Below are positions 10,176 through 58,473 of a stretch of DNA of 64,000 bases, in pieces. The position numbers and the translations under genes were made by a program. The notes beneath the pieces were generated by a model. That model saw only the letters and a program-made list of their open reading frames with translations, did no database searches and was not told where the DNA came from. This DNA is from Protoeuglena noctilucae (taxonomy: Eukaryota): NCBI GenBank assembly GCA_958009085.1, contig OY253678.1:496001-560000 (forward strand), in the 5' to 3' direction. Within the stretch, counting starts at the first letter, position 1. Each line of letters opens with the position of its first letter.

Positions 10176-13100
10176 CTACTTGTGGTGCGGGACGAGGAGG
10201 TTTGCCAGCCGGGGATCGCGCTTGAGCTTCTGATCCAGCTCAAAGAACTTCAGCAGCGCATCCTCATCGTGCTTCTTCTTCCGGTAATCCAAGATGTGAA
10301 GCTGCGGGCACGTCGGAGCAAAGCATGTCGTCCGCGGCCAGCTGCAGTGCGAACGCTCCCATCCGCAGTCGCTGAGAAGTCAAGCCTCCCACACTCCGCA
10401 CCTTGAACAGCGCCTGCTCCACCTCCATCTCGTGCTGCTCCTCGTCCGCCCGCTGCATCGAGTCCCGGTCTCGCTGGAACGTCGCCTGCTTTTTCTGCAG
10501 CGCCGCCGTCTCCTCCTCCAGCCTGCGCGGCGCCGACGCAGGTCCCTCAGCCACCTCGCCGGCGCGGCAGGCCTGAGCGAGGCCCGCCGACCCCGCCACA
10601 ACGCGTCGCATGCGCGGTGCCCCGCCGCAGCCCCTCACCTCCCGCGGATGATGGCCTCCCTCCGCAGCACCCGCTCCTTCAGGGCGTCTAGCGCCCGGCT
10701 GCGCACTTGCACCGCCTCCTGCTGCGACAGCGCCTTGCGGGGCTTGTAGTTGGGTGGCAGGTACGGCGCGAGGTAGTCGTGCTCCGTGGCCTCCTCGTCC
10801 TCTCCCTCCGCGTCCGACTCCTCCTGGTTCTCGCGGATGATGTCGTAGTACGGGACGTGCACGCCCCCGCTCTCCTCCTCCTCCCGCCGCACCATCATCT
10901 CCCGTATCTCCGCCTCCATGTCGCGCACAGCCGTCACCGCCTCCCGCTCCTCCTGCACCAGCTGCAGCGTCTCCTCCGCCAGCTGGGACTTCGACACGGG
11001 GCCCGCCGTCGGGTCCACCTGGCTGACCTCCGCGTCGCCCTTCCGGAAGATCTTCGAGGCACGGGTGATTTTACCCTCCCCGTAGTGGTAGTGCACCTGC
11101 GGGGGCGCGATAAGAGGCGACGTCAGTCTACGGCCACCACATATTCTCACTCACACCCTGGCGATCACAGCACGTTGCTCCTGCAAGCCCATCACTCCCG
11201 CCTCATCCCATGGGGTGCGGTGCAGCCAGTGCGACACGGCGGCCAGCAGCAGCAACATGCTGGCCAGTGGGATACTCCCATCCCAGAGCCCCTCCCTCGC
11301 CTCGATGCGGTCGTTCTTGGGATCGAGGCAGAAGCGCCTCTTGGCCACGTCCTGCCCCGCGGGCACGCTCTCGTCCCGCGAGAACTTCTGCGTGATCTTG
11401 ATGATCCCCTGGTGCGTCTCGGTGCGCATGTAGTCCTGCGCCGCCGTCCGCTCGGCCTCGCCCGCCTGCCGCGACACCATGTCCTCCGGAGACATATCCT
11501 TGTACCGCACCGACCGGTACTCCAGCCGGTCGTCGCGCCCACGGAACCACTCGGTCGTCTTGCGCCTCGGCAAGAAGGCCTGGGACACGACCCACTTGAG
11601 ATAGGTATACTCGGACTCGATGAACTCCTCCACGCGCTTCACCAGGCCGTCCTGCCGCGCCTCGGTCCAGTAGTGCGTCTCGCGGTACTTGCCGCGGATG
11701 CTGATGTGCGTCTTGAGCGCCGACGACGACCCCTCCGCGAAGTGCTCCACAACCTTCTCGCCCTTCTTGCCCCCCGGCTCCTCCGTCACGTACTCCCGGC
11801 GCTCCTTCAGCTTGTCCGCCCGGCGCTGGAAGAACTCCCACACCTCCGTCTTGGCCGTGCACTGCGGCGGGGGAGCAAAGGAGCGGTGGGCGGAGCAGCA
11901 AGTGCGGGCGTTGAGTGCAGCGGTCGGCGGGGTGACTGGGGGGCCGCCCTGGCACAGGGCCAGGCGGGGCCACAACTGCAGTACTCCGGGCTGACAGCGT
12001 GCACCACAGGCAACAGCCCACATGCAAGATAGAAGTCAGCTACTACTACTCCACATGGCGTCTATCACACAAGCGCAGGGCCACAGCATGGTATGGTTCA
12101 GCGCATGTCCTCGCCTGTACGTCGCTGAAGAAGGTGAGGCGCTCGACGCGTCCCTCGTAAGCCTTGGCGCACTCGCCAAAGTAGGCGAAGATCTCCGACT
12201 TGCACCGGTCATACATGACCACCTTGTGGCCGCGGGGGCACCGCGTGTCGAAGGCGTCGCGGGAGATGACCAGGCGCGGGACCCACGAGGGCGGCATGTC
12301 GATCACTTGGCCCTCCCGGTCCTTCAGCTGCTCCCCCGACACCACCGCCTCCATCCACAGCTCCGGGTTACGCACCGCAGCCGCGAGCACCCCCTCGCCG
12401 CCCCCCGCCTTCACCGCCGCCTCCACCGCCCCCAGCGCCACCGACCCCAGCCCCGGGGGCTGCGCCGCGAGGCCCACGTCGCTCGAGATGGCCTTCTGGA
12501 TCCGCTGCGCCAGCTCCTGCGCCCCCGGGTACATCTCCGGCTCGGCCAGGACGTCCTCGAACGGCGACAGGAGGAACTCCCACAGTTTCGGGTTGGACAG
12601 GTCCCACTGCACGTCGCGCGGGTGCGCCCTGCGACCAGAGCAGGGTGCATGGGTGGCGTCGCGGCAGGGGCGGGGCTGAGGGAAACGCCGCGTGTTTGGA
12701 AAACGCAACATCGCGTCAGAGACGCGAGGCACGGCTGTTTCTCAAGAACAGGATGGAAGCAGGGCAACGGCGCCATCGTCGCACGTGGCCGTTTGGCAGT
12801 GCCACTCGCCTGCTGTCCGAGTGGGGCTCTGGCATCTGCATGCACACCCAGAAGTTCTGGTGGTTCCAGACGAACTCGACGCCCTCGTAGGGGCTCGCCT
12901 CGGGGGCGAAGCACTCCCCCGTCGTGGGCTCGATGAAGAGGGGCGCTGTGACCCCGCGCTTCTTGGGCAGCAGCAGCACCCAGGCGTGCACGCGCCGCCC
13001 CTCGTGCGGGTCGCCCGCCTCCTCCTCCTCCTGCCCGAACTCCATCGCGAACTCCATCCGCCGCAGCTCGTCCTCTTTTGCCTTCCGCTGCTCGTCCTCC

Positions 13101-16100
13101 AGTACACTGTGGGCCCGACGCTCGACGGCCATCATCTCCCCGTTCGCACCGCACCATCTCAGCGGCTCGCTTAGCAGATGGCAGGATCGATGCTCTGACA
13201 CCTGTGCAGCTGATACGGGTTGCCCTCTGACGGGGTGGAGTAACCAACCCACGCCCCACTGCCACTGATCTAATGCACACAGAGCGGTGGCGTTGTGGTG
13301 TGGATCGGTTAGTCAACCCGTCAGAGGGCAACCCGTATCAGCAGCTGTACTGCCAAACCCAGATGCCCGTCGCATCCCGTCCCGCATCCTCACCGCGCTG
13401 CCTCCTGCTGCGCCGCCTTTGCGACCTTCTTGTCCTCATCCCGCCTCTGCATGGCCTCCTGGTAGTGGCTCTTGAGGTCCGGGAAGTCCTTCACCTGATA
13501 CTTGACCACCTGCACAGACGCTCAAGAGACAACACCCGATCTCACATGCACTCCCACCCGTGCGCAGCAGTTGCCACGGAGCTTCCCACGCTCCGCTCTT
13601 ATGTTACGCATCTAGAACAACATTCTGCTGCGCTCCTCGACGCCTGCAATTGCGATTTGCGGCCGCCTCTTGCCTGGGAGGGCTCCAGGCCCAGCAGCTC
13701 GGCCCCAGCGTGGCTCTCCTCCGCGGAAAGGGGCTCGCCGTCGCCCATCGTGGATCTCTGCATCTCCGACCGCTCCTCCTGCACCGAAACAACCGCACCG
13801 TTGGCCCTTTCTCGTCCCCGCTGCGCAACCCACGCGGACCATGCACTGCGACCCAGATCTGGCCGTCACCTGTGCGGCAGGCATGGCGGGGACCGTCGTC
13901 GCCGAGGGCTGCCCGGCCCTCTCCAGGTCCTTCTTGAGCAGCGGGCATATGTTGTGCGTCTGGTTGTTGAGCGTCACGTCTTTGGGAGCGTACCCCGCCA
14001 CGACATAGGCGTTGTAGCCAACGCCGAGGAGGATGGAGGCCAGGAGCACCGACATGTCGAAGCTGCGAGGGATCGGGGAGCGCGGATGTCGGCGCTGACG
14101 CGGAAACGGCGGCCATCGTCCCACAATGACAGTCAAGCGAGGGAGCGAAGAGCGGCACCGGTTCTGCCACAGGTGAGGCGCGAGGCGAGGATGCAAGAAG
14201 CGAGGCAGACCGCCTGCATGAGCGCCGCAGTGTGCTGACTCGCCATGCCCCTCTTACACCCCACCACCCCGCGCCTCACCAGTCGCCTGCCTGCCAGTTG
14301 ATCACGGTGAGGGGCGAAGGCAGGCACGACGGGAACTTGACGGGGTTCTCGAGTGGCTCGTACTTGATGAACTCGCTCACGAAGTGCGCCGCCGACTGGT
14401 ACTCGTAGAGCTTGTGGTAGGGCATTTCGGTGGGACGCAGCGTGGTGCACACAAGCTTCGGGACGCCCGCCTCGTTCTCGGGCATCAGGAAGAGCGGGCG
14501 GCGGTGCGGATAAAGCTCCCCGAACGTCCGCTGGAACTCCCGCGCGTACGCCAGCACCCGGGCCTCCTTGGGCGAGTTGACGGTGTAGGTCGCCGGGAGC
14601 GTGGACCGCAGCGTCGTGCGCGTGTGCTCCACGCGGCCGCGCTTGGGGTTCTCCTCCGCGGCGTCCGAGCCGATCTCCTTGTCCGGGAGGTCCTTGATCA
14701 TCACGTACTTGTAGCAGTCGTACCACAGCGAGTCTGCGGAGCAGAGAGCGACCCTCAGCGGTCACGCCCCCACTGCTGCAGCGAGTCAGCAGCCCATACC
14801 ATCGCACTCCACCAAACATACGGTGCCTGAAGCCCCGCCAGCGCCGCTCCCCAGCAGACACGAGAGCCTCGACACCCCCGGTCCCCACCACCCCTGCCAC
14901 AGGCAGGCTCACTCACCGCTTTCCGTGGGTTCCTCCTCCTCCCCCGCCCCGACCTGGAGCGAGTGGAGGTACCCGTTGGCGAAGACCGCGAACCGGTGCC
15001 GCTTGACCTCCAGGCAGGCGTCCATCTCGGTGTACTCCGGGGGGTTGCGCATGAGGAACTCCGTGGACATCTCCTCCGGGATCTGCAAGCGGTGCAGCTG
15101 CGCGCAAAGGCCGCCCATGTCGTCGAATCCGCCAAAGATGTACAGGTTCGCCTCGTGGGCCACCATCATGTGCTTGTGCCGCTGCGCCCCGGGCCGCCCC
15201 GTCGTCTCGATGTTGATCCAGTTGCCGGTCGTGGTGTCGTAGGCGTACAGGTCGTCCTGGACGAAGTTGCTGCGGCCGCCGTGGATGAAGATGTAGCGCC
15301 CGGAGACGGCGATGGCGGCGCTCTGGCGCGGAGGGGGACGTGGGCCAGCCGACCCCGGCTTGAACCACGTGAAGGTGTTGAGGTCCAGCATGTAGAGGTC
15401 GTTGTACGGCTTGGGAGAGCCCTTGCCGCCGAAGATGACCATGCAGTGCGTGTCCGGCATGTAGGCCGCGCTGGCGTTCTCGCGGATGCCCGGGGCGGGG
15501 CCCTCGGTCACCCTCTGCAGGGGCGACACATTGTGAGAGGTGAGCGAGGGACAACGAGGGGCCACGATGACGGCTGGCGGCTGGAAAGGCAAGCAGTACA
15601 GCTCTGTATATCAGCTGAACACTGAAGGTGGCACGCAGGCCATCACTTTGATGCCAGAGTTGTGGCTACCCTGGCCGTGCCACCATCAGACCCCGCCATC
15701 TGCCCTCGCTCGCCTTTTGCCACATGAAGGTCTCCAGGTCGATTGTCCACACGTCGTTGAGGCGCTTTCCCTTGGCGTCCCTGCCCCCGAACAGCACGAG
15801 CTGATTCCTGGCCTCGTCACAGATGATGCTGCGGACAGCACGGCACGGGACGCAAAGCTGAGGGAGTCCCTCGCGTCGCCGACATGTCTGCGCCATCCCA
15901 CAACTCATCTGGCGCCTATCGCAGAGCCTGCAAGAAGCACGGAGCCCGTGCGCCCGCACCTGTGCCCGTCGCGGGGTGGTGGTGCCTCCCCTTGCGTGAT
16001 GATCATGTTGAAGGACAGGGTCTCGAGGTTCAGCAAGTACAGGTTGTTGGTCTTGGACGCGCTCTTGATCTCCTGACCGCCCACCAGGGTGAGGTACCTG

Positions 16101-17440
16101 GGAGGGAAGCGGGCCAGAGCGTTGGTGGGTGTCAACTGCGCGACATGAGGCGCGGCCTTGCCAAGCGTGGTGTCTCCCCCGCCTCACTTCTTGTTGGCGA
16201 TGACCGCGGCGCCCTGCCTCACGAAGCACCGGTTGTCCTGTGCCCCGAAGGCGTTGTATGCCTCTGCCATGGCCGCCCGCTCCCGCCGGCTGACGTACCG
16301 CGTCTGGCGCACGCGCCGGCTCTCGTTGATCCGCAGCTTGTATTCCATGTACGGCCCCGACTCCTGCGATCACCGAAATTGATGTCCCGCTCACCCCGGG
16401 GACGGCCAAGCCAGACCAAGGGCCAAAGACATACAAATGGCGTGGCGGACCCACGACCATGCCCGCACCCCGCACGGCTACGCGCCCCAGCGCCTCACCT
16501 TGCCCACGGGCTTCATCCGCTCAATCTCCTCCTGCCTCTCCCGCTTCTCCTCCTTCTGCAGGAAAGCCATCATGCTGGCCAGGCCCTGGGGCCCGGACCC
16601 CGATGCCGCGTGGTAAGCTTCTGGCAGGTTGTTCTGGTCGATGGGGAAGTCCCGGAGTCCCGGGATGAAGCCCATGCTGGGAGGGATGCGCTGGAGGTTG
16701 TTGCGGCTGAGGTGGCAAGTCTGGAGGGACACGAGCGCGCCCATTGACTCCGGCAGGCGCACGAGCCGGTTGTTGGTCAGGTTCAGGGAGACCAGGGAGG
16801 TGAGCTCCCCGAAGTCCTCCGGCAGCGTCTCGAGGCCGCAGTCCTCGCAGTTGAGCCTCGTGAGGGCCGTGAGGTCGCAGATGCCGTTGGGCAGCGTCGT
16901 CAGCTCCTGGCCCTTCATGTCGGAGATGTCCAGGACCTTGAGGTGCCGCAGCGCAGAGATGGCCTCCGGGATGGACTTGAGGTTGTTTTTGCTCAGGTTG
17001 AGCTCCTGCAGCTTCGTCATCTGCAGCAGGACGTCCGGGAAGACCTCGATGCCGTTGTCGCGGAGGCTCAGGGAACGGAGCCGGGGCAGCTCGGCCAGCG
17101 ACGCTGGGATCGTGCTAAAGCCATTCTCCTCCAACTCAAGGCGATGCACGTTCGGGACCTCCGTCTTCAGGCGCAGCACGATGTGCTCCACCTTAATCAT
17201 GTTGCCCTTCTTCCTGCAAGGGCCCGCCGAGGCGGGGCCGGTCGCGATCAGATCAGGAGCGGACACGGCTGCGCACAGCGTGGGCGTCTCGAGCGCAGCG
17301 TGGAGCGGAGGGGGGGGCATGGCCAGCGCAGCCTGCACTCACTTCCAGGAGAAGGGCGGGAGGTTGCCCTGCGAGGGATCCCGTCGGCCCCCTGCCTTGG
17401 CATCCTTAATGGCATTCTCCAACGCAACTTCGAGCGACAT
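10176..17440 (-). CDS. DRC7: Dynein regulatory complex subunit 7 (CCDC135/FAP50) with N-terminal LRR and Kelch repeats
   Basis: LRR exon at about 17215-16500, Kelch exons at about 16365-14918, then PENEAGVPKLVCTTLRPT, GDCFDMSVLLASILLGVGYNAYVVAGYA, VHAWVLL, FIEPTTG, VEFVWNHQNFWV and C-terminal KLKRDPRL. The Kelch-DRC7 junction is phase-consistent. Confidence 0.9.
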
Positions 17441-22775: not shown

Positions 22776-25231
22776 TCACGCGTCCTTCTTGAGCGTCTCC
22801 ATCACTTTGCCGTACACGCGCTGGTTGTACGCCTCCTGCAGCCGCTCCACCAGCTCCATCTCCGTCGTGCCTCGGCCGCCCTGCGTCCACGGCTGCTCTG
22901 GTCATAGCACGTGCCCGGCCAGCGGCTGCTCGGAATCCATTCTATTCGATCCGCACCTTGATCTCCCCCTGGTGCAGCACGAGCAGCTTGCACCCGCGCC
23001 GGACCGCCAGCTCCTCCATCTGCAGCGGGTGCTCTGGCACGACGTCGGCCTTGCGCGCCTCCTTGAACTGCTCCCACTCCTGCACGGCCTCGATGAAGCT
23101 CTCGGCGTCGCGCTTGTCCTCGAAGCAGATGAGACGCCTGCGACGCCGGGCGGCGAGCGCAAGCGCGGTTTGGCATCCATAGCGGGCGACTTCCATGCGA
23201 GGCGGCCGCATACCGTGTGAACTGTTCCTGGCGCATTCCGAGGCGCGGCAGCCCCACCCACCCGGCGTACCTGTCGGGGTCAGCTTCCACCGACATGGAC
23301 AGGTCGACGATGAAGTAGCCCTTGCCCCCGTCGCCGTAGACAAACAGCGGGACGCAAAGGTAGCGCAGGGAACGGTACCAGGTGTCTTCCGTCGTCATCG
23401 CGTTCTTCACGTCCCCGGGCATGATCACCGTCAGCCCCGACCGCTCGTCGACCTCACCAGCCTCCTCGCGGGGCTTGGAGGCATCGCCGGGGGCCTGCAA
23501 ACCCACAAAACAATACAATTGCGGCCGCACCAAAGCAGTCGACGTGCTGGACCCGGCACCAGTTCATATTGCCGCTGTCAGCGGAAGCGAGGCTTGCCTT
23601 GGCACTCGACCCGTCCTTGGCGGCGGGCCCCGGGGCCTGGGCAGCGCCGTCGGCAGGGCTCGGGGCCGTGTGGGTCGCCGCGCTCTCCTTCGCGGCCGTC
23701 GGCGAGGCGCTCGAAGCCACGGGGCTCCCCGACGACTTCTTGGGCACCACCGTGCCCCACGGGTCCACCGGGGTCGCGCTGCGGCGGATGGGCTCTTTGA
23801 CCTCCTTGGTCCCCTGAGCGGGCTCCTGGGCCGGCGCCGGCGCCGGCGGCTTTGGCGACTTCGCGGGCGCGCCCTCGGCTGCCGCCACGGCGGCGCTCGC
23901 TGGCGCGCGGGTGGTGCTCGCATCCGCGTGGCCCTCGGCTCGCGGCTGAAGCTCCTCGTCGTCCTGTGGAAGCCTCAGCGGGACGCTGATGGACGGGGAA
24001 CCCTGCGCAGATGCACAGGCGAGGATGTTCCGAACTGCACCACAGCTGCAGCTGGACAAACCCTAACAGTCACGCATGCGCAACGCCTTCCTCAAAGGCG
24101 CCACCGAGCGGTCTGCCGCCTCCGGACGACCCAGCGACGCTCACCTGTCGGGGAATCGGCGACGGCGCACGGGGCAGCACCTGGGGTGCCTTCGCGGACG
24201 GGGCGGAGTTCCTGCCCTCGGCACGGCTTGGCTCAACCACCTTCTCGCGGGTCACGCTGCGGCTGTCCCGCTCGACCTCGGAGGCTGTCGGCACAGCCAC
24301 CGTCGATCCATTGGAGCTCTCGCGTGGAGACTCGGCCGGGGGTGCCTTTGCCAGGGACCCAGGGGCCGATCCTTGACTGCGGGTTCCGTTTGCCTCGGTC
24401 GCCTCGTCGCCACGCAGCCCACGGTCTGCGGAGCTCTCCGGGATCACGACTGTCGAGTCGTGGGACGGGCCTGGCTCGTCCTGGGCCTCCTGAGGCTTTG
24501 CTGATGCCAGGTCAGGTCGGCCCTCCTCTACACTCGACGCCGCTCCTGCGGCAGCAACGAACGGGACAGGGAATGGGGCGTCTCCGGTCTCGGCCGCGAA
24601 CGCAAGTCGGGTGACTTGTGAGCCCAGCCCGAGCCGCACCTTCCGCGGCCCCCGTCAACACCGCGCTCTCTCGCTTCTCGCGGAAAGCCGTCCCCGGCGG
24701 TGGGGTGACGACGATCGGGTCTGGAATCGCGAAGGCCACCGGGTCCCAGTTGGCTGAGGACGGGCGTCTGGGCCATTGAGGGCGACGTTCCCGCCTCGTG
24801 CGCCTGGGCGGCGGCGCCCTCGCCCCCGCCGGTGCGGTCCGCGGGCTNNNNNNNNNNNNNNNNNNNNNNNNNNNNNNNNNNNNNNNNNNNNNNNNNNNNN
24901 NNNNNNNNNNNNNNNNNNNNNNNNNNNNNNNNNNNNNNNNNNNNNNNNNNNNNNNNNNNNNNNNNNNNNNNNNNNNNNNNNNNNNNNNNNNNNNNNNNNN
25001 NNNNNNNNNNNNNNNNNNNNNNNNNNNNNNNNNNNNNNNNNNNNNNNAGCAACTCACCAACGACAGGTCCCAGAGCGTGTCGCCGGGCCGAACGACGATG
25101 ACGTCCGCCGGCGAGCGGCTGTCCCCTCTCACGGCGCCACAGGGAGCGTTCCCCGCCCGGCCGCGCCTGGGCAGGGCCGGGCCATGCCGAGGACGGCCGT
25201 AGCCCAGGGCGATCGGGCCCGTGAGAGACAT
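22776..25231 (-). CDS. Putative plastid protein: LysM start, low-complexity linker, C-terminal EMB1703-like domain (spans assembly gap)
   Basis: IVVRPGDTLWDLS is a LysM N-half just before the gap. The C-terminus reads WYRSLRYLCVPLF..GYFIVDL..LICFEDKRDAESF..LLVLHQGEIK. Confidence 0.65.
24848..25047. other. Assembly gap (200 N)
   Basis: Run of N characters. Confidence 1.
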
Positions 25232-29947: not shown

Positions 29948-31981
<2,034 letters not shown>

Positions 31982-45648: not shown

Positions 45649-46646
45649 TTAGGCCGCAACCTTGCCGTAGACGGGCTTGGCGAGGTCGTCCGTGAACTCC
45701 TGGAAGGGGCTCTTGACGTACTTGTTCTCGCGCCACATGTCGGGGGTGAGGAAGCTGTAGGTCCGGAGCAGGGCGCCGTAGGTGGCCTTGATCAGGTTGC
45801 CCAGCGTGGCCGTCTTGCCGCGGGCGCACGTGTAGCAGTCGACGATGCCAGCCATCTGCGGAGCCGACGACAGGGGTCGCGCTCGCGGGAGCGCGCGGGG
45901 GCGAGGCTTGGCGGGGGCGCAGGGAGGGCCGGCGGCAGTCTCACCTGCAGCACCTTCTTGGAGGCGACGGAGGCGACGATGCCGGCGCCGCGGGGCGCGG
46001 GGATGAGGCGGACCATGACGGAGCCGCAGCTGGCCGAGACCTTGAGGGGCACGGTGTGGGGCTTGCCCAGCTTGGAGCCCCAGTAGCCGCGGCGCACCGG
46101 GCACACGTTCATCTTGGCGAGGTTGATGGCCCCAAGGATGGACGTGGCCACCTCCTTGGCGCACTTGACGCCCAGGCCGATGTGGCCGTTGAAGTCCCCC
46201 ACCAGCACGAACGCCTTGAAGCGCGTGCGCTGCCCGGCCCGCGTCTGCTTCTGCACGGGCATGATCTTCATCACCTCGTCCTTAAGCGTGGAAGGGCCCA
46301 GGATCGTGTCGACGATCTGGTACTCCTGCGCGCGCGGGCGGGGCGCGGGCGCTCGTCACGGGGCGCGTCAGCAGCCGGGCCCTCCCAGGCCGCCGGGCGC
46401 AGCAGCGGGCGCGGACGGCGCGGCGGCGCGCACCTTGATGGGGATAGAGTGCAGGTAGATCTCCTCCAGCGACCGAATCTTGCCCATCTGCACGAGGCGC
46501 CCCAGCTTGGTGCACGGCACCCACTTCTCCTCCCCGTCATCCCTGCGCCCGCGGCGGCCACCCCGGCCCCGGCCGCCGAACCCACGCCCGAACCCGCCAC
46601 GCCCGCGCCCCTCGGGAGCGGGACCCGGAGCGGGAGCGTCACCCAT
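45649..46646 (-). CDS. RPS2: 40S ribosomal protein uS5 (S2)
   Basis: RGG-rich N-terminus, [39 protein letters not shown] and SPFQEFTD. Confidence 0.98.
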
Positions 46647-47499: not shown

Positions 47500-48090
47500 A
47501 TGAACTGCAGCTTACAATCGCGCCTGTCGGCGCCCGCCGTTGGGCCCCATCGGCGACGGAGGCGGGCCATCACTGCACATGGCTTTCAGGCGAGCGTGGG
47601 TGCCGGCGCCTGGCGACTGGGCGGTCGCTGGTGTGCTCTTCGCTTCCAGTTATATACCTACTTGTTAACCCGCAGGAAGCCATGATGGGCCTGGCCGTGG
47701 CCGCGTCGGTCGGGGCCCTGCTGGTGAACGGGTTGCGTGGCCCACCCGAGGTCTGCGACATGTGCGGGGGGAACGGTGGCAGCAAGTGCTTCGTCTGCGA
47801 GGGGACCGGGATGAAGCCGGGAGTTGCTCTCCAGGTCCGCGACGCCGGCCAGCAAGCCCAGCGGTGGCGTGCCTGGCCCAGACCCCCCATCCACAATGCA
47901 ATGCCTGTGGCAGTGCCCTGCCCATAGCCTGCACCGCCCGGCCTCTCTGCAGGACCTTGTCAAGAGCTCGGAGGGGAGGAAGAACGGGGGGGCACGGGGG
48001 GGCAACCCCCGCTCCTGTGTGGCGTGCGGCGGGACGGGGCTCATCTTGTGCCGCAAGTGCCAGGGTACGGGCTTCATGAAGCCCATGTGA
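47500..48090 (+). CDS. Small DnaJ-type Cys-rich zinc-finger protein (likely plastid)
   Basis: Four CxxCxGxG repeats (CDMCGGNG, CFVCEGTG, CVACGGTG, CRKCQGTG) after a transit-peptide-like exon and a hydrophobic segment. Confidence 0.88.
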
Positions 48091-48502: not shown

Positions 48503-51500
48503 TCACTCGTCCTTCCCGTCCCCATCCTCGGGGCCCTGGAACCCCACGCCCCTCCTCTTGCCCTCTTTTGCAGGAGCTTTCTTCTCCGCGCCCTCGTCCT
48601 TTTCGTCAGTCGAGGCGAACCCCACCCCACCTCTTCGCGTCTCCTTGGCCCCATCGCCGTTGGACTCCGCGAACCCCACCCCGCCTTTTCGTGCGTCCTT
48701 GGCCCCATCGCCGTTTGCCTCAGCGAACCCCACCCCGCCCCGCCGCCCCTCGCTCTCCTGCTCGCTCCCCATCACCACCACGCGGCCGCCCCGCCGCGCG
48801 CTCGGCAGTGGCTCCGCTGCGCTCGCAGCCTCGCTCCCGTCGGGCGTCCCGGCCTCCGCCGGCGGCGTGTGCAGCGGCGTGCCAGCCTCGGCGGGCGGCG
48901 TGTGTGGCGGTGTGGCGACGCTGTGGGCACACGAAGCTCAGCAGGTGATGCATGGCGTAGGATGTGTGCAAAACATGGCTGATGGGAGCCACCAAGGTGT
49001 TGCACTATGCTTTCCACTGCCCCAGTCGCTCTGCCACCCACCCCCGCGCCCCTCCCTGCCCCACTCACTCTGCAACCGACTCGAGCGCCCCCGACACCGC
49101 CGGGGCCTCGGCCACGGCCGGCCCCGGCCCCCGCGCGCCCTTGTCGTCCTCGTCCGAGTCGTCGGCCCACTCGAGGTTGGCCGTGCTCTTGCGCCGCAAC
49201 GGGACGCACTCGTCCTCGCCCGCCGCCTCGGCCAGGGCCGCCAGCCGCGCCATGAGGTCGTTCCCGAACCCCTTGATCTTCCCCCGCTCCTCGTCCGTCA
49301 GCTGCACCGTCGCGCCCGCCTCCTCGAAGTCGTCCGAATAGTCGTCGTCGTCGTCCGAGGCCAGCTCACCCGGCGAGGGCAGCCGCGACTGGAAGCGCGA
49401 GGCCGCGCGGGAGGCCGCCCGGGACACGGCGCGCGACCTGGCGTCCTGGTCCCGCTTCTGCAGCACGACGTGGAGCTCGCCCAGGGCCGCATAGGCCTCG
49501 AACATGCGGCAGTTGGCCTTGCGCTTGGCGATGATGAGCTTGAGGTGCTCCTGGATGAAGGGCAGCTGCCGCATGGCCTCCACCAGGTCGCCCTTGCGCA
49601 GCACGAGGGCCTCGAGGAAGGTCGACGCCCGCACCGACGCGCATCGCCTGCCACCCGACAGCAGCGCCATCTCCCCCGCAATGTCCCAGCGGCCCATGTG
49701 CGCCACCACCTGCAGGTCCGACATCTGCGACGGGGGGCAGCGGACGTGCGGTGGATGGATGCCCGCGGTGTACGGGCAGGGCAAGGATCCGCAGCAGTGC
49801 GCCCGTAGGGTTGCCTGCATCAACACCCTACTCATCATCATCCCCAACCCCACCCCCGCTCCTCCCCTCGCAACCCCCACCCCCGCTCACCTCCTTGTCC
49901 CGCACCGCCTGCCCCACCGCCGCGGCGCTGGCGGCCGCATTGCGGATGAGGGTCTCCAGGTCGTTCCTCAGGTCGTCCTTGTCCCGGCCGAAGATCGGCG
50001 ACATGAGGTTGGGGTCGAACTGCAGCTCGGCCTCCTCCTTGAGCACCGACTCGAGTTCCTTTACGATCTCGTCCGCCGTGGGGTCGCGCCCCAGCCGCGT
50101 CGCCAGCGCCTGCGTCAGGCCGGCCATGCGCATGGCCAGGGGGCCGTCGTCGTCCGAGTCCTCCTCCTCCACTGCGGGGAGCGAAGAAAAGGGATGTCAT
50201 CGATGTCAGTTTCGTCAGAACACGTATTTCTGATGTTGGCACCTCCGCCTCCGTCTCCGCCCCCAAAACGGCCCCTCGGCGTCTCACCGGTCTCGAGCTT
50301 CGGCTCCCCTTCGCCATCCTCGCTGTCCTCCTCGTCCTCATCCTCGTCCTCCTCCTCCCTGGCGATGATGTTCCAATCCGCATTGCGACCCGACGAGTAC
50401 CGCGTGATCTGCCCGCGGCTGGCCGCCCGGGCCTGGCTGCCCGTGCGCTTCAGGCTCGTCTTGCGGGATATCTTGCCCGCGTTGGAGCTCGAGTTGGTGC
50501 GGCTCAGGCCGGACAGCGCCTTCTCGATTGCACGCTGGTTGCCCACCTCACCCGATCCCATCGACCCCATGGCGGCCAGCAGGTAGCTCCCGGTGGGCAG
50601 CTTGCCATCCGCGTCCGCCTGCCGCTGCTCCGCCGCGATGCGCGCGCTGCCCGCGCGGATGGCCTGACGGATATTGCCCGCAGTCATCGCCCCCGCGCCC
50701 TCTCCCTCACCCTCGCCAGGCTCCACGCCCAACGCCTGCTCCACCTCCGCCAGCAGCGCCCGGCTGCTCTCCCGCGCCGCCACCGCCTTCTGCCGCCGCT
50801 GCTCCGAGTGCCACGCGGCCATGTCTCCCCGCTCATCCACCGAAGCCGCACGCAGCCGCCGCGCCGCGCCATCTCCCGCCCCGTCCTTCGCCCCCGCGTC
50901 CACGCCTTCCCGGCCCGCCGAGGTCCCCGCGGCCGGCCCCACCGGCCCCGCCGGCTCGGCCTTCCTTGCGGACGTCGCCCCGTCGCGCCTCCCGCCCCTG
51001 GCTGCTGGCTCATGCGCATGCCCCGTGTCCTCCCAGGCCATCTGGGACTGACTCCGGGGGTGCGGAGCCGCGAACTCGGGCCGGAAGGGCAGCTGCTGGA
51101 CCTGCGCAGTGCCACGAGGGTGCAGCACGGTCGGTGTCCCGTCGTGCGAGAGTGGCCCAGGTGAGTGTGGCTCAGCGACCGCAAGGGTGGCGGTTGCGAC
51201 GGACAAGTGCAGCGCTGGCGTGGTCACCTGGGCAGCCAGGGCCTCAAACGCCCGTGCGCGTGCCGTGGAGCCTCGGGACTGCGAAGACGTCCGCGACTGG
51301 GGACCGCCGGCGCCTGCCGCCTGCATAACACCGCCATTGCCCAGGTGGCGCGCCGCGCGTGCGGAGCTGGCCGTGGACGTAGTCCCTCGGGACGTCCGGG
51401 ACCGGTGGGCGCCACCCAAACGGAACGCTGCGCTGTTGGCTGCAAGGGCGGGCGGGGCACGCACGTGAGGGGCGGTGAGAGCGCTGCGTGGGGTGCGACT

Positions 51501-53357
51501 CTGCCGCAGCCCGCCACCACGCGTGCCACCTCACAATATGTAGATGGACAGCAGTCGCGGCGGTGCAGGCGCAACCACCCATCCACACAACCACTACCTC
51601 GCTGCCCCGCCGCCCCTCACCCTGCCCGCTCGCCCCCGTGCCGGCGTTCTCGACGTCGATTCCCTTAAAGAAATCGTCGGGTGCCAGCTTCAAAACCATG
51701 GCCTTCCCCTTTAGGACGAAAAAGGCCGCGTCGCCCTCCTCGCCCTCACGCACCAGGAACTCCCCTGGCTGGAAGGTGCGGCGCTCCAAGCCGGGGAGGC
51801 TGCGGGGGCAAGGCGGGTGCGGCGATGGGCACATGCATTGGAAGAGAAGCGTGGTTACGAGAGACTCTCATGACCCTGCAAGCGCGCTCTATCATCTCCA
51901 CACCCACCCCTCCACACACAGCTCAGCCCCGCTGCCCCCCTTACCTGGCCAGCACGCGCGCCATGTTGGCGTCCAGCGTCTCAAAGGTTCCCTCCCCGTC
52001 CTCCGCCTCCTCGGCCACCCCCGGTGCCCCGACCTCGGGCGGCAGGTCAATGACGTTGCACCACTCATGCGCCAGCACGCCCTCCAAATCCAGCCGGTTC
52101 TTCCTCTCCTTGTCCAGCATCGTCGTCAGCAGCGACCGGAGCGCGTCGGACGTGGGCGGCGACTCCGGGAACACCAACGGGTCGTCCATAATCGCATCGT
52201 ACATGGCGTACACCGTCATTCCCGACTTCTTCCCGAACGGCAGCTTGCCGAAGATGAGGTGGTATAACGTCACGCCGGCGGCCCAGAGGTCCGCGGCCCG
52301 GCCCGAGTACTTCTCGCCCATGCAGACCTCGGGCGGGAGGAAGGCCGGGGTGCCGCTCGATCGGAGGAGCTCGTCCTTGATGACCGTGGATCGGGACTTC
52401 TCGTCGTACACCTGAGGGGGCAGAGGGAGAGCGGATGCATGTCTGGACCTCTTGGAGGGATTTGAGCACGTGCGAGGTGGGGTGGAGCGGTGCGGGGTTG
52501 GTGATGACATGCGCGGAGGGTGCGGGGTGGGCGGCAAGGCTGTCTTAAACAAAGAATCTCTCGGCTGCCCCGGTCAAGCCCCCTGCACCTGCAACCGCAT
52601 CACCCATGCCTGCTCTTCTTCAATAACACCCCGCACCTGCTTGCACACGACGCTGGACCCGAAGTCGATGAGCTTGACCACGCCGTCGCCCCCGAATGCC
52701 AGGTTGGCGGGCTTGACGTCTCCGTGGATGACGCCCTTGCTGTGGATGTGCCGCAGGCCCAGCAGGAGCTGGCGGAAGATGCCCCGGGCCACCAGCTCCG
52801 ATAACAGCTCCGTCTCGTCCTCGTACTCCTCCTGAACGGGACCGCCTTCCACGTACTCCATGACGACCATGATGGTGGGCGAGTCGGGGTCGTCGATCAC
52901 CTCGTAGATCTGCGGGGCGAGGTGCGGGGCGGGGGAGGGGTGACGGGGGCACAACACATGCGGAGAGCTCAGCACAGGAACAGGGAGGGGTGCGGGGCGC
53001 ACTGCGTGTGGGGACGGCGCAGAGTGGGACGCAAGCATCGCACTGGCCTCCTCGCAAGGACTCAGCTTACAAGCAGTATCAGTATCACTATAACTATCAC
53101 TATCACTATCAATATTAATATCACTGCCACCCTCTCACCTCCACAATGTTGCGGTCCATGAGGGACTCGAGCGTCGCGATCTCCCGCTTGATGGCAACCT
53201 CGGGGTTCTCCCCGCCGCCCATGGCCCGCGAATACGTCATCTTGCGGCGCTCCCGGTACACGGCCTTGACGGCCACCAGTCGGTACTCGCGCAGGTCCCA
53301 GCACAGGTTGACGTGGCCGTTGGCACCGGCGCCCAGGTGCTTCATCACTGGGGGGGC

Positions 53358-53416
<59 letters not shown>

Positions 53417-55344
53417 AGGAAGTGAGAGTGGAGGGGGACAGTCAAGGCGGCATGGGATCAGCGTAGTCGGCAGGGTTAAGAGAAAGGGCCTCACCGGCGT
53501 AATGGTTGACAAAGATCTTCTGACTGGCGCCCTCCCCGACTTTGCCCATGCGCAGCTTGTCCTCGTGCGCCACCACCGACTTGGCGTCGTGGCGCGAGGC
53601 CCCGTCGTCGCCGTCCCCGCTCGGGGTGCTGGGCCGCCGGCTCTGCGCCGGCACCTTCAGGTTGTGCACCGACTCGGCGGCTCCCCCGGCGCTGTCCGAG
53701 TCGTCCTCGTCGTCGCTCGTGGCCTTCAGGTTGCCCATCGAGTTTAACATGAAGGCGCCTGCGGGGAGGGGGCCGCAGATTACCGGTATGCAAGGGGAGC
53801 GGTGCGGCATGGAGCGCAAAGGAAGCAGAGGGCCCAGGCAGGTCAGAGAGGGACTGTGGACTGACAATTAGGTGAATGGACACGAGATCGCTCATTCGGG
53901 ACCAAGAGGAAGGCCCGTGGCCTGAAACTGCCTCAGGCGTGCGTGCCGTCTGTGCCATCGCTCGCTGGCCCACCCGCCCTCACCCACGCCGCCCGCGTCC
54001 CCCGGCTCACCTGCGCTCTTCTGGGTCTGCAAGCCCGTGCGCGGGCCGCCCCGACTCTTCCCCAGCAGCTCCTGGTTGATGGCGGTGAAGTCCACCTGGC
54101 CGGCGCCCAGCGTGGCGTGCAGCTCCTTGATCGTCGCCTCCACGCCCCCGTTCTTGGGGCTCAGCGAGTCCTCCGCGTCGATCTCCGCCCCGCCGATGCG
54201 AACCGTCACGCGCGGGTCGCCGATCGACCTCCGCCGGTGGAAGGACCGAGACGCCTCCCCGCTGCCCTCGCCGAACTTGACCCCCCCAGGGCTGCCCACG
54301 CCCGCCCCGTGCGGCGACGTCGCCCCGTCCGCGTCCGCGTCGGGGAACGTCAGCTTCCGCGCCGACGAGCCCTTCTTGTCCGGGGGCCTGACCTCAGGCT
54401 CGTCTGGGAACTGCGCCTTGCGCACCCCGGACGTCTTTCGCTCCCCAGCCGCGTCTGCCTCGTCGGGGAACTGCAGCCGCCGGGACGACCCTTGACTCCT
54501 GCGGTCCCCCGCGGCGCCCGTCTTGAGGGCGGAGCCCTTGGCGGACGAGCCCAGCAGGCGCTCGGTCCCGTCCTTGTCGGCCTTGTCCGCCTTGTCGGCC
54601 GCGCCCGGCCCGGCGAGCTCCTCCTGTGCGCTGCCGCTCGATTGGGCCTTGCGCGGGCGCTTGTCCGAGGCCGCGGACGGGCTGGGCTGCGCGGCGTCGT
54701 CCTGGACGAACCGCAGCTGCCGCGAGGAGGCCGTCTTGACCGTGTCTGGCCCCTCTTCCGCCAGCGCCCGGGTCCCGTCGGAGTCCATCGTCGCCTTCAG
54801 GCGCTGCGACGAGGAGCCCTTGATGGGGACACGCGCGGGGGAGCCCTCCGCGTGGCCTGAGGGCCGGGGCACCTGGGGCCTGCACGCACGGAACGCAGAC
54901 CACGGCTCGCTCGCGGCCATGCCAATCAACTGTCGGCGGAGGCCTGAGGTGGTGACGCGGGGGCGTCGAGAGCGTCAGGGCGCATTTGCGAGGAGCCGCC
55001 CACCTGCCAGATGGCACACGATGGCCGGCCTCCGTGGCCTTCCCTGGGGCCTGGGGCGGCTTGGCGTCTCCAGCCAGGACGGTGCCGGTGCTGTCGCCCC
55101 CCAGGACCTCCTTCCGCTGCGGCTCCGTGGCGCGCGCGGCGCGGTCCCTGGGCTCGGCGTCTCCATCGGAGGGCGACGTGCGACTGCCCTCGTTCTCGCT
55201 GCGAGCAGGGGCCACCTTGCCCGTGCCGTGCCCGCCGACGGGCTCTCCTCCGGTTGCGCCGACCTTTACGTCATCCGCCTTGTCGCCCGCCGGGCCGGAC
55301 TCGGGCTCGACGGCGTTCAGGCGCTTGGAGTGGATGCAGCCCAT
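48503..55344 (-). CDS. GRIK/SnAK-CAMKK-type Ser/Thr kinase with an N-terminal MGC acylation motif and a split C-terminal cNMP-binding domain
   Basis: Kinase motifs LGAGANG, VAVK, YEVIDDP, MEYVEGG, HGDVKPAN, DFG, GTPAFLPPE and DLWAAGVTLY. cNMP halves FQPGEFLVREGEEGDAAFFVLKG and GEMALLSGGRRCASVRA. Confidence 0.88.
53075..53122. repeat. Degenerate AT-rich hexamer microsatellite (actatc)n in a kinase intron
   Basis: agtatc agtatc actata actatc actatc actatc aatatt aatatc. Confidence 0.9.
53358..53411. repeat. Perfect (gagggt)9 microsatellite in a kinase intron
   Basis: Nine perfect copies just inside the intron's acceptor end on the minus strand. Confidence 0.95.
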
Positions 55345-55350
55345 GTTGTC

Positions 55351-55695
55351 TCAGTGCAAGCCCCTCCGGACGCGCGACACGCACGTCATCAGGCGCGCGA
55401 ACTCCTCCTTGCACTGATTGCGAGACACCTCGGGCAGCCGGGACGTCGCGCACGCCGCCTGGGGGCCGGGAGTCACAGAAGTGCGTCCCACAGTGACGCC
55501 GTGGGACCGGCGCCCACCCGCCGGGCGCGGCCGAGGCTGCGTGCGCGGGCCCCAAGGCCCGGACAACCCAAGCGGCGTCGTCTCGGCGGCACTCACGTAC
55601 GCGGCGGCCTCCTCGCGGCACTGAATAAGACCTTGGCGCACCAACTGCAGCAGTTTGCTACTCCCTCGATGGTCTTGCTTCCCAGCCGATGGCAT
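55351..55695 (-). CDS. NDUFAF8: 68-aa twin-CX9C protein, NDUFAF8-like complex I assembly factor
   Basis: Splicing out 55596-55459 (TAC|gtgagt...ccag|GCG) gives ...QCREEAAAYAACATSRLPEVSRNQCKEEFARLMTCVSR..., two exact CX9C motifs with the NDUFAF8-like CxxEAAAYxxC and CxxEFxxLxxC pattern. Confidence 0.8.
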   Translation of the reverse strand: MPSAGKQDHRGSSKLLQLVRQGLIQCREEAAAYVSAAETTPLGLSGPWGPRTQPRPRPAGGRRSHGVTVGRTSVTPGPQAACATSRLPEVSRNQCKEEFARLMTCVSRVRRGLH

Positions 55696-56202
55696 TGCCC
55701 GCTTTCACGATCTAGCCACGCTGCGGGGGGGAGGGCGGGACGGGTTCGCGGGCTGGCGACCGCGCGGCCCGGTCATTGCATGCCGGGGGGGCTCGGGACC
55801 CCCCAGCACTGGGCACCCCTGGGCCCCCCGCGGGGGACGAGCGCCGGCCACAATCAGCCGCCACGACAGCGTCCAGGGCTCCCTCCAAGGAAGGCCGAGC
55901 CCCACTGCCGCGGTCACCTCAATCACACTCCGAGGAGCCCAGGTCAAAGGGCAGCCACCGCTCGGCAACCAGACTCATTAGAAATACAGTGACGCGCACT
56001 GCGGCGGCGTCGCTTCGCTCCCGACCCTGTCTGACTGAGGGTTCGCCCCGGGCTCGAGGCAGGCAGCAAGCTGGCCCGTCCTGGCCGGGACCTTCCCATT
56101 TCGCGACAGGTTTGCTAGCTCGAGCGCATTGGCCCTGGCATCAGGCTCGGGTGCAGCGAATTCGACGACCAGCGACGTGCATCAGCGCGACGGGGGGCAG
56201 GA

Positions 56203-58209
56203 ATGCTGGGCCTGGAGGCAGTGGGTTTCAACTTGCACGATGGCTCCCTAGGTGAGCAGATGGCGTCAGCCGCGGTGGCCTCCAAACGCAAATTAGGGCC
56301 CTGCTCGTCCCGGCGAGGGAAGCGCCCCGCTGGCGGGCGATGGAGGCGAGCCCTGGCATGTGTGTGTCCTCTAGGAGGCGCGCCAATGGACGGGCAGCTT
56401 CTCGCCGCTGCGTTCGCATCCCCCAGCCGGGTGGGGCCTGGACGCGCGTAGGCATGAGCCTGCGAGAGGGAGGGGCACTGCTGCGAAAGCGAGCGCACTC
56501 GGCGACGCCAATTTGCGTCGAACAACCGAGTTAGGTCCCCGGGGCCCTGCATTCCCGCCGCCGGGCCCGTCTCAGCCTCGCTCGGAAGTGCAACGCGTGG
56601 TCGTGGTGCCTGGCGCCCCCCGGGGACGTCTCAAGCCATCGCAGCCTCGGTCGTTTCAAATGCTCCTGTGCGGGCGACATCCCTCGCTGCCGCACACAGC
56701 ACAGGCCCTCCCGCCCCTGCGTGCAGAAGGCATCGTGCGGGGGCACAAGGGGGGCCTCCTTCGGGCCGCGGATTACAACAACCTGGCGCAGTGCGAGAAT
56801 CTGGAGGACGTGAAGATGAACTTGGCGGGGACCGACTACGGCGCGTACCTGCAGAACGAGCCGGGACCCTTGCGGACGAGTGTGGTGGTTGAGCGGTGCA
56901 TGCAGGTGAGCGGGGAGCCCTCGCGCGCCCCCGCCTCGCCGGCTGCGGCGCGAGGGGAATTCGAGGGAGGCTGCGCCGGGCCGCATTCCCGCAGAAGCTT
57001 GTGGACGACTGGCGGTACATGCGTGCCCACGCGGACGAGCCCTTGGCCCAGTTCCTCGACTACTGCACGTACGGCTACATGATCGACAACGTGGTGCTCA
57101 TAGTCACGGGGACGCTGCACGAGCGGGACGTGCGGGAGCTGCTGGACAAGTGTCATCCGCTGGGGGCATTCGACAACATGGCAACAGGTGCGTGGCATGA
57201 TGCGCTCCCCCGCGCCGAGGGCGCTCCGTCTACGTCGCGCGACGGCGCTCCCGGTGCCGCTTGAGGCCGGCGGCGAAGGGAGGCCCTGCCCCGGCCCGCC
57301 CGCAGTGGCCGTGGCTTCGTCGATGAAGGAGTTGTATCGCCTCGTGTTGGTGGAGACGCCCCTGGCCCCCTACTTCAGCGAATGCCTCACGTCGGACGAC
57401 CTGGATGAGATGAACATCGAAATCATGCGCAACACGCTCTACAAGGCATACCTGGAGGATTTCTACAAGGTCAGGCCGGGCACGGCGCGGGGCGGGCTGC
57501 GGGGGAAGGGCCCCGTCAGCGCTGCCCGGCCGCGCAGCTGCACGCTCCGGGGAGCTCGTGGCGTCACACTCCACCTCCCCACCCCGTCCGCAGTTCTGCC
57601 AGAAGCTGGGGGGCGCGACTGCCAACATCATGGGGGACCTGCTGAGTTTCGAGGCCGACAAGCGCGCCCTGAACATCACGCTCAACTCCCTGGGGACGGA
57701 GCTGACGCGGGAGGACCGCCGCAACCTCTACTGCTCTTTCGGACTCCTCTTCCCCCAAGGGCAGTACGCCATGTCGATGGCGGAGGACTACGACGCGGTG
57801 CGCGCGGCGGCCGAGATGGTCCCGCAGTACCGGGAGTTCTTCCAGGGTGGCGCGGGGTACGGCGCGGAGTCGCACATGCTGGAGAAGGTGCGGGGTGCCA
57901 TTGAGGCCGGCCCGGCGTGGCGTGCGTCACGCTGGTGTCGTCATGGGGCCGTGCGCAGCAGCCGGGGTGGTGTCGTGCGCGGCAGCCGGCACAGAGTGCA
58001 GCCGTCTCCCTCCGCCTCCGCCGCAGCTGCTCTTCACCGAGGAGGTCAAGCGCTGCGTGCTTACGTTCGACCAGCAGTTCCATTACGCCGTGTTCTATGC
58101 CTACCTCAAGCTGCGGGAGCAGGAGATCCGCAACCTGATGTGGATATCCGAGTGCATAGCCCAGGGGCAGCGGAACCGCACCCAGGACGGGATCGTCCTG
58201 GTGCTCTAG
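56203..58209 (+). CDS. VHA-d: V-type ATPase V0 subunit d
   Basis: [62 protein letters not shown] and [21 protein letters not shown]. Confidence 0.97.
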
Positions 58210-58473
58210 AGGCTGTGGCAGCGCCGCCCCACGCGGAGGTGGCACAATAGGACATCTGGCGCCTGTTGAAGTTAGGGGAGTGTCGGCCCCGCCCTGACAC
58301 GCCGGCCTGCGGCCCTGGCAGCCGCCCCTGCCTCGCTGGCCCGTCCTGGCCCGAAGCACCCTCTCTGGCACCGGCGACTGGCACAGAAATTTCCTCGCTG
58401 CCGCCCCCCGAGTCCAATCCAGCTTGGTTCCTCCGCTCCTTCGCTGGTCTCCCGCCGCAGACAAGGTCCTGCG

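Follow-up and report, generated by a model that had tools for sequence, protein, structure and literature searches.

A candidate nuclear bicistronic locus of Protoeuglena noctilucae in which a spliced twin-CX9C reading frame ends six nucleotides before the start codon of a cNMP-domain kinase

Nuclear loci that carry two open reading frames (ORFs) on one transcript have been described in green algae, where, in the available portions of the reports, they are exclusively bicistronic and have small first ORFs (PMC7896298, PMC11291117). According to the available part of the second report, the first ORF (ORF1) has a median length of 291-357 nt, the medians of the distance between the two ORFs are 183 nt and 40 nt (the latter in Auxenochlorella), and some stop and start codons overlap; the Kozak-like context of ORF1 is the weaker one, ATGs are depleted before the second ORF (ORF2), 5' untranslated regions (UTRs) are short, and the mutational data speak for leaky scanning, not for reinitiation or internal ribosome entry sites (PMC11291117). 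A supplement, in the part available, lists COA4-like, COA6, Cmc1-like and COX17-type cistrons (PMC11892635), and as far as these excerpts go the published partners often do not act together. Here we analyse a locus of this type on the minus strand of a 64,000-nt stretch of Protoeuglena noctilucae DNA (contig OY253678.1, positions 496,001 to 560,000; hereafter the window, in which all coordinates are given, with both ORFs on its minus strand). A reading made from the letters alone (the sequence-only reading) had pointed to this locus and had invoked polycistronic nuclear transcripts of green algae, whose occurrence is indeed published, as the same excerpts state (PMC7896298, PMC11291117). Our preferred reading, to which we give a probability of roughly 60%, is a nuclear bicistronic locus with a twin-CX9C protein encoded by ORF1 and a kinase encoded by ORF2, the latter being reached by leaky scanning. 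As in the loci excerpted above (PMC7896298, PMC11291117, PMC11892635), ORF1 is small (207 nt) and the distance between the ORFs is short (6 nt).

The sequence-only reading had described a spliced ORF1, its stop codon, a spacer and the start of ORF2, and a check in the sequence found all of these where it had placed them. ORF1 starts with the ATG at 55695-55693, ends with the TGA at 55353-55351 and comprises 68 codons after splicing. The spacer GACAAC leads from this stop to the ATG GGC TGC of ORF2 at 55344, and stop and start share one frame. The length of the ORF1 intron is a multiple of three and the intron is stop-free, and the unspliced frame is open too, with 114 aa. The end of ORF2 had been set at 54394, where the frame, read without splicing, meets its first stop; ORF2 is spliced at 55004/54879 and continues. 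The G+C content in the window is 62-73%.

Eight sequencing runs cover the stretch wholly or in part, and four of these are recorded as RNA; the RNA runs are metatranscriptomes, all from one study and labelled marine. We compared three RNA runs (X1, X2 and X3) and a run of unrecorded type, X5, which contains the whole stretch in near-identical form, is probably DNA and may be where the window comes from. The central observation is a contig of 362 nt from run X2, which matches the window with 0 mismatches and joins positions 55167-55457 to 55596-55666, skipping 138 nt. The joint has CT..AC ends on the plus strand, equivalent to GT..AG on the minus strand, which shows that the RNA is minus-sense, and its shorter side measures 71 letters. 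Spliced ORF1 from codon 11 onwards, the entire spacer of 6 nt and 178 nt at the start of ORF2 all lie on this contig. The splicing of 55596-55459 that had been proposed from the sequence is thus seen in RNA, with a joint that is absent from run X5, and spliced ORF1, spacer and ORF2 start are continuous in one RNA contig, as had also been proposed. On the strength of this contig, a bicistronic RNA very probably exists at the locus. Moreover, neither a promoter nor a 3' end of its own would fit into 6 nt, so that an RNA containing the complete ORF1 has to enter ORF2. TGTAA is the poly(A) signal of algae, and neither TGTAA nor AATAAA occurs on the minus strand from 56100 to 53400; the next plausible signal for the kinase gene is the TGTAA at 47516. 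This evidence from signals is weak.

The remaining RNA cover is more heterogeneous. An X1 contig (55360-55740) passes through the ORF1 intron unspliced, and this could be pre-mRNA, intron retention or DNA in the library; retention of the intron would yield the 114-aa protein, with its first CX9C motif split by 46 residues. Records 6 and 7 of X1 overlap at the stop/start region, and neither bridges it with at least 31 letters on each side. X3 does not cover ORF1. The gaps in cover (for example 56026-56126 in X1 and X2; 55319-56025 in X3) are not evidence of absence. Another X1 contig, at 55721-56007, covers the region upstream of ORF1; it may stem from a 5' UTR that is long or that contains an intron. 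In this region we also noted a 3'-splice-site-like CCCCCCGCAG ending at 55721, and short upstream ORFs of 19, 2 and 23 codons starting from the ATGs at 55978, 55781 and 55776, respectively.

Spliced ORF1 has cysteines at residues 26, 36, 49 and 59, that is, two CX9C motifs separated by a 12-residue loop, with Tyr33 at Cys26+7 and Phe53 at Cys49+4. Contiguous twin-CX9C patterns numbered 0 in the six-frame translation of the window (127,996 residues, 3.25% Cys). To assess coding potential we used codon log-odds from a table built on 1,560 codons of Pfam-matched stretches in the window. ORF1 exon 2 scored +33.5 bits (0.96 per codon, compared to 1.01 per codon and +292 bits in total for kinase exon 2), placed in the top 5% of 20,000 random windows and had a third-position G+C content (GC3) of 0.94. 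Exon 1 of ORF1 scored +7.0 bits, the best of the three frames, whereas the ORF1 intron was negative in all three frames; all introns scored negative. ORF2 exon 1 reached +81 bits, with +38.9 for its first 40 codons. In the ESM Atlas, the three nearest clusters listed for the 114-aa translation were a fungal hypothetical protein of 73 aa (0.86), a cluster named NADH:ubiquinone oxidoreductase complex assembly factor 8 (NDUFAF8; 0.85) and a second fungal hypothetical protein, of 77 aa (0.85), with other CHCH families at 0.79-0.83; exon 2 alone gave CX9C/CHCH-type clusters listed at 0.78-0.86 and no NDUFAF8. All of these scores lie below the 0.9 line of the tool and are to be taken as leads. In either search, the neighbours listed were CX9C/CHCH-type clusters or unnamed small eukaryotic proteins. 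Judged from the sequence, ORF1 most likely encodes a twin-CX9C protein, and this protein is probably of the CHCH type. It was absent from the protein collections searched, an example of how gene callers come to overlook small mitochondrial proteins.

The sequence-only reading went one step further and named ORF1 an NDUFAF8-like microprotein. The spliced 68-aa twin-CX9C ORF stood up to our analysis; the NDUFAF8 identity found no support in sequence, Pfam or PDB searches with the unspliced translation or single exons. The one line of support for the label is the ESM Atlas neighbour of rank 2 (score 0.85), which was gone when exon 2 was used alone. NDUFAF8 (C17orf89) binds NDUFAF5 and acts in the assembly of complex I; the human protein, as described in the available parts of two papers, has 74 aa, twin CX9C motifs, a basic N-terminal segment of 19 residues and important residues Tyr32 and Phe55 (PMC7042492, PMC10174193). 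By these excerpts, ORF1 resembles NDUFAF8 in its twin CX9C motifs and in its size (68 versus 74 aa), and it likewise carries a Tyr within the presumed first helix and a Phe within the presumed second one. We take the offsets of these Tyr and Phe residues from the Cys residues to be equal in the two proteins. The first 25 residues of ORF1 contain four K/R, one D/E and one H, whereas the 19 N-terminal residues of the human protein, in the same excerpts, include four Arg and nothing acidic, for a net charge of +4. A literature search for NDUFAF8 together with Chlamydomonas turned up no paper on an algal NDUFAF8, judging from titles and the opening lines of abstracts, and for Andalucia the excerpt available lists NDUFAF8 as not detected. 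NDUFAF8 is a reasonable guess for ORF1, though we regard it as more likely wrong than right. In algae, ORF1 is a candidate for a respiratory assembly factor, be it of complex I or otherwise, and if the link to NDUFAF8 were proven, the known range of this factor would extend beyond animals and fungi.

ORF2 proved to be linked to a kinase gene by the joints and loose ends of introns 1-3: from the ATG at 55344 its frame is stop-free for 564 codons across RNA-supported exons and into the first exon with a Pkinase match. For intron 1, the X1 and X2 contigs end at its borders, and the frame is open across it. Three pieces matched the Pfam model Pkinase, and two, about 2 kb apart, matched cNMP_binding (profile positions 1-37 and 40-88), each of these two just below the gathering score. 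The proposal that the ORF starting with MGC is a cNMP-domain kinase is thereby borne out, with a layout of a Met-Gly-Cys start, a disordered region of ~490 residues, the kinase domain and a split cNMP-binding domain. ORF2 exon 1 had no match at E<=0.01 among longer proteins, and the kinase gene seems not to be annotated in the protein collection searched. Among proteins of 327-2000 residues, the best kinase relatives were two from Pedinophyceae sp. YPF-701, P0003 (1816 aa) and P0004 (1556 aa), with 56% and 47% identity in the central kinase exon. The cNMP-binding domain is split in both relatives as well, by inserts of ~220 and ~400 residues; the cNMP fold thus seems to harbour a long insertion that has been conserved.

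Two further claims on the kinase had been made from its sequence. One took the MGC start, through N-myristoylation, as an argument for separate initiation at ORF2. Relative P0003, like ORF2, starts with Met-Gly and has Ser at position 6; by the myristoylation consensus, this would fit an acylated free N-terminus and separate initiation. The other claim classified the kinase as an SnRK1-activating type. With the central kinase exon, the best PDB matches were CaMKK2 (57.7 bits) and CaMKK1 (55.3 bits), closely followed by GCN2 (51.8) and MAP3K2 (51.1); these two top matches are the evidence that speaks for such a type, and their margin is small.

We next consider how both proteins could be made. 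The start contexts had been given as gcaATGc for ORF1 (G at -3, C at +4) and aacATGg for ORF2 (A at -3, G at +4), with no out-of-frame ATG between the two starts, and all of this was found as described; the only ATG in between lies in frame within ORF1, as its codon 57, and is flanked by C at -3 and A at +4. Further upstream there are ATGs at 55776, 55781, 55978 and 56099, the nearest lying 81 nt upstream of ORF1. In the mechanism that we propose, one minus-strand transcript would start between 55696 and ~56120. Small ribosomal (40S) subunits would load at the cap and some would initiate at the ORF1 AUG, giving a CHCH-type small protein, possibly NDUFAF8-like, that would be imported into mitochondria via the disulfide relay. 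The remaining 40S subunits would scan on, meeting no out-of-frame AUG and only the in-frame AUG of codon 57 in its weak context, and would initiate at the optimal ORF2 AUG. Both ORFs are likely translated, as judged from their sequence, and we infer leaky scanning as the most likely route to ORF2 since the locus fits the published description of green-algal bicistrons. The two products need not share a common function, and we found no evidence that they act together, so the earlier suggestion of a coupling between complex I assembly and energy sensing was not upheld. A more far-reaching version, in which ORF1 would be the first NDUFAF8 orthologue recognised in the green lineage, obligately co-transcribed with a membrane-anchored, CaMKK-like, cyclic-nucleotide-regulated kinase and competing with it for translation, so that the choice of start codon would set the ratio of the two, strikes us as distinctly improbable; if true, altered scanning stringency would tip the cell either towards expanding its respiratory capacity or towards signalling.

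A number of findings weigh against our preferred reading, and some of them lend support to rivals. The coding signal of ORF1 exon 1 is weak (+7 bits, top 16%), and homology searches, whose sensitivity was reduced by the use of the intron-containing translation or single exons, found no relative of ORF1: phmmer gave 0 matches at E<=0.001 among 1.84 billion representatives, a word-indexed search of 5.8 billion clusters gave 14 candidates and none at E<=10, and PDB sequences gave 0 at E<=10. The best Pfam model for the unspliced translation was CHCH at E 0.25 (12 bits against a cut-off of 27.2), while single exons gave nothing and no other CHCH family model was significant. ORF1 might then be a regulatory upstream ORF that throttles kinase synthesis, its peptide functionless and its twin CX9C fortuitous; this would also accord with the fact that the CX9C pattern was first found by choosing a splice, and with ESM Atlas scores in a range (<0.9) where shuffled proteins score too. 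We nevertheless regard this reading of ORF1 as unlikely. The chosen splice was later confirmed by RNA, exon 2 has a coding signal that is per codon as strong as that of kinase exons, no contiguous twin CX9C turned up by chance in the six-frame translation, and the named ESM Atlas neighbours listed in both searches are CX9C/CHCH-type small proteins, which recur as cistrons in algal bicistrons according to the part of the supplement available (PMC11892635). Leaky scanning itself meets with objections as well. The ORF1 AUG has a purine at -3 and is not clearly weak; the AUG of codon 57 could trap scanning subunits; the depletion of ATGs is not significant (0 out-of-frame versus 1.66 expected in 210 nt, P ~0.19); and if the X1 contig 55721-56007 is 5' UTR, three AUGs (55978, 55781 and 55776) precede ORF1. 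In a published reporter, restoring one AUG abolished ORF2 expression, as stated in the excerpt available (PMC11291117). The purine at -3 would suit a bicistronic RNA on which ORF2 is reached by termination-coupled reinitiation, with 40S subunits resuming at the AUG 6 nt past the TGA. The same holds for codon 57, which opens a 12-codon in-frame mini-ORF ending at the same stop, and a spacer of 6 nt is within the range reported as most efficient, by another work cited in the excerpt (PMC11291117). On the other hand, that excerpt also states that ORF2 output in green algae fell with a stronger ORF1 context, opposite to what reinitiation predicts, and that the efficiency of reinitiation declines with ORF length, which for ORF1 is 68 codons (PMC11291117). 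Altogether, reinitiation appears improbable here.

The RNA evidence also has a bearing on whether a single transcript is involved. Stop and start are bridged with at least 31 letters on each side in only one of the three RNA runs, and contigs cannot prove a single molecule, a transcript start or a transcript end. It is therefore conceivable that a contig merges two overlapping transcripts, a short ORF1 mRNA and a kinase mRNA that starts in or just upstream of ORF1, and the unspliced cover and the cover at 55721-56007 in X1 do hint at heterogeneous RNA or library DNA. Such a pair of transcripts is nonetheless rather improbable given that any RNA with the full ORF1 must run into ORF2, that the bridging contig reaches 178 nt into ORF2 and that no TGTAA or AATAAA follows for ~2 kb downstream; in addition, the start of the kinase mRNA would sit within coding sequence, at most a few hundred nt before the ORF2 AUG, and the pattern matches the exclusively bicistronic loci as excerpted from the literature (PMC11291117, PMC7896298). 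The shared frame and the spacing of 6 nt would finally permit readthrough or recoding of the TGA, producing a CHCH-kinase fusion protein. One third of ORF pairs are in frame by chance, however, and in the available text the published algal pairs show the same proportion (PMC7896298). A fusion would bury the Met-Gly-Cys N-terminus, whose Met-Gly is also found in relative P0003, and no readthrough context was identified, which makes this explanation extremely improbable. We therefore continue to favour a bicistronic RNA with leaky scanning to ORF2. The features of the locus are collected in Table 1.

Table 1. Features of the candidate bicistronic locus and its immediate upstream neighbour, with their positions in the window.
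Feature	Position	Strand	Remarks
Upstream region expected to hold the transcript start	55696..56121	-	bounded by the divergent V-ATPase subunit d transcript
ORF1 exon 1	55597..55695	-	99 nt, 33 codons; basic N-terminal segment and first Cys (residue 26)
ORF1 intron	55459..55596	-	138 nt, GT..AG (GTGAGT...CCCCAG); RNA joint in run X2
ORF1 exon 2	55351..55458	-	35 codons and TGA; Cys 36, 49 and 59; in-frame ATG at codon 57
Spacer GACAAC	55345..55350	-	6 nt from ORF1 stop to ORF2 ATG; bridged by X2 contig
ORF2 exon 1	55004..55344	-	context aacATGg; N-terminus MGCIHSK; low-complexity sequence
Kinase intron 1	54880..55003	-	124 nt, GT..AG; joint in X3, shorter side only 24 letters
Kinase exon 2	54011..54879	-	disordered N-terminal region
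Kinase intron 2	53759..54010	-	252 nt; RNA joints with sides of 255 (X2) and 83 (X3)
Kinase exon 3	53495..53758	-	RNA contigs and open frame
Kinase intron 3	53348..53494	-	147 nt, GT..AG; X2 and X3 loose ends at 53495 map to 53318-53347
Protein kinase domain exons	52046..53347	-	Pfam Pkinase on three ORF pieces; tblastn with P0003 and P0004
Split cNMP-binding domain	49467..51789	-	N-terminal half ~51676-51789, C-terminal half ~49467-49715
TGTAA, possible poly(A) signal of the kinase gene	47512..47516	-	putative; one of six minus-strand TGTAA in the window
V-ATPase subunit d first exon, divergent neighbour	56122..56251	+	bounds the locus, outside it

The surroundings of the locus are as follows. 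A divergent gene for V-ATPase subunit d lies at 56122-58250 on the plus strand, with an ATG near 56203 and a first exon that ends at 56251 before GTGAGC; it was recognised by contigs from X2 and X3, whose loose end is at 56251, and by Pfam vATP-synt_AC39 matches on downstream pieces. The contigs of this gene reach 56122, and the depth of its RNA contigs is much higher (43-88); contig depth was not used to compare ORF1 and ORF2. Since the two start codons are ~507 nt apart and divergent, this housekeeping gene and the bicistron are probably served by one bidirectional promoter region. On the other side, a gene for uS5 (RPS2) is found at 45795-46355 on the minus strand, just downstream of the kinase gene and in the same orientation, and the kinase and uS5 transcripts may have their 3' ends at the TGTAA motifs found on this strand at 47516 and 44409, respectively. 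The best matches of uS5 were ribosome chains from plants, at 213 bits compared to ~202 for animals; that the top matches are plant ribosomes is presumed, partly from Arabidopsis-style names. Together with the kinase relatives and the marine label of the RNA runs, the uS5 sequence is compatible with a marine green alga. Further away, the minus strand contains flagellar and cytoskeletal genes at 10638-17338 and 29951-31298, comprising DRC7 (with MORN and Kelch parts), a leucine-rich repeat (LRR) protein and a tubulin-tyrosine-ligase-like protein; the DRC7 and tubulin-tyrosine-ligase genes indicate a flagellate organism. The window contains 200 N at 24848-25047, presumably one run that represents an assembly gap. 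Introner-type repeats were considered for four introns and dismissed, since blastn against the window gave only self matches and one 26-nt match.

This type of arrangement is already known in green algae, and the mechanism adds nothing beyond what has been published. The novelty lies in the organism, in a spacer as extreme as 6 nt after a first ORF that is itself interrupted by an intron, and in the combination of a twin-CX9C ORF with a cNMP-domain kinase. A word search of the supplements of both bicistron papers did not find this pairing, and the only kinase entry shown there, Cre12.g541211, has a nitrite transporter as its partner. The locus thus adds a well-defined nuclear bicistron to the catalogue of the green lineage, outside the species of the original description.

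When the parts of the locus are set beside known systems, the kinase of ORF2 is like the CaMKK/GRIK (SnAK) kinases in that CaMKK2 and CaMKK1 are, by a small margin, its best solved relatives, and it goes beyond them with its ~490-residue disordered N-terminus, its Met-Gly-Cys start and its split C-terminal cNMP-binding domain. P0003 and P0004 (PF00069 and PF00027) are closer in layout: an extended disordered N-terminus precedes the kinase domain, the cNMP domain is split, and the two proteins are collinear with the window; their N-terminal regions are not alignable with that of ORF2, and P0003 shares the Met-Gly start and the Ser at position 6 with ORF2, whereas P0004 has no Met-Gly start. With the CHCH-fold proteins COX17, CMC1, COA4 and COA6, ORF1 shares two CX9C motifs with a short loop between them, a length in the range of ~60-80 aa and, within each motif, an aromatic or hydrophobic residue, and it differs from them in having no significant CHCH-family profile match (unspliced translation and single exons). 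Finally, the green-algal bicistrons, as far as the available parts of the reports describe them, come from Chlamydomonas, Chromochloris and Auxenochlorella; the present locus is from another organism, has an in-frame internal AUG and is known here from contigs and sequence. A start context of ORF1 that here appears poorer than that of ORF2, and the small number of AUGs before ORF2, may be points in common with the loci in the same excerpts, which are like this locus in that the first cistron encodes a small protein of mitochondrial type and both ORFs lie on one RNA.

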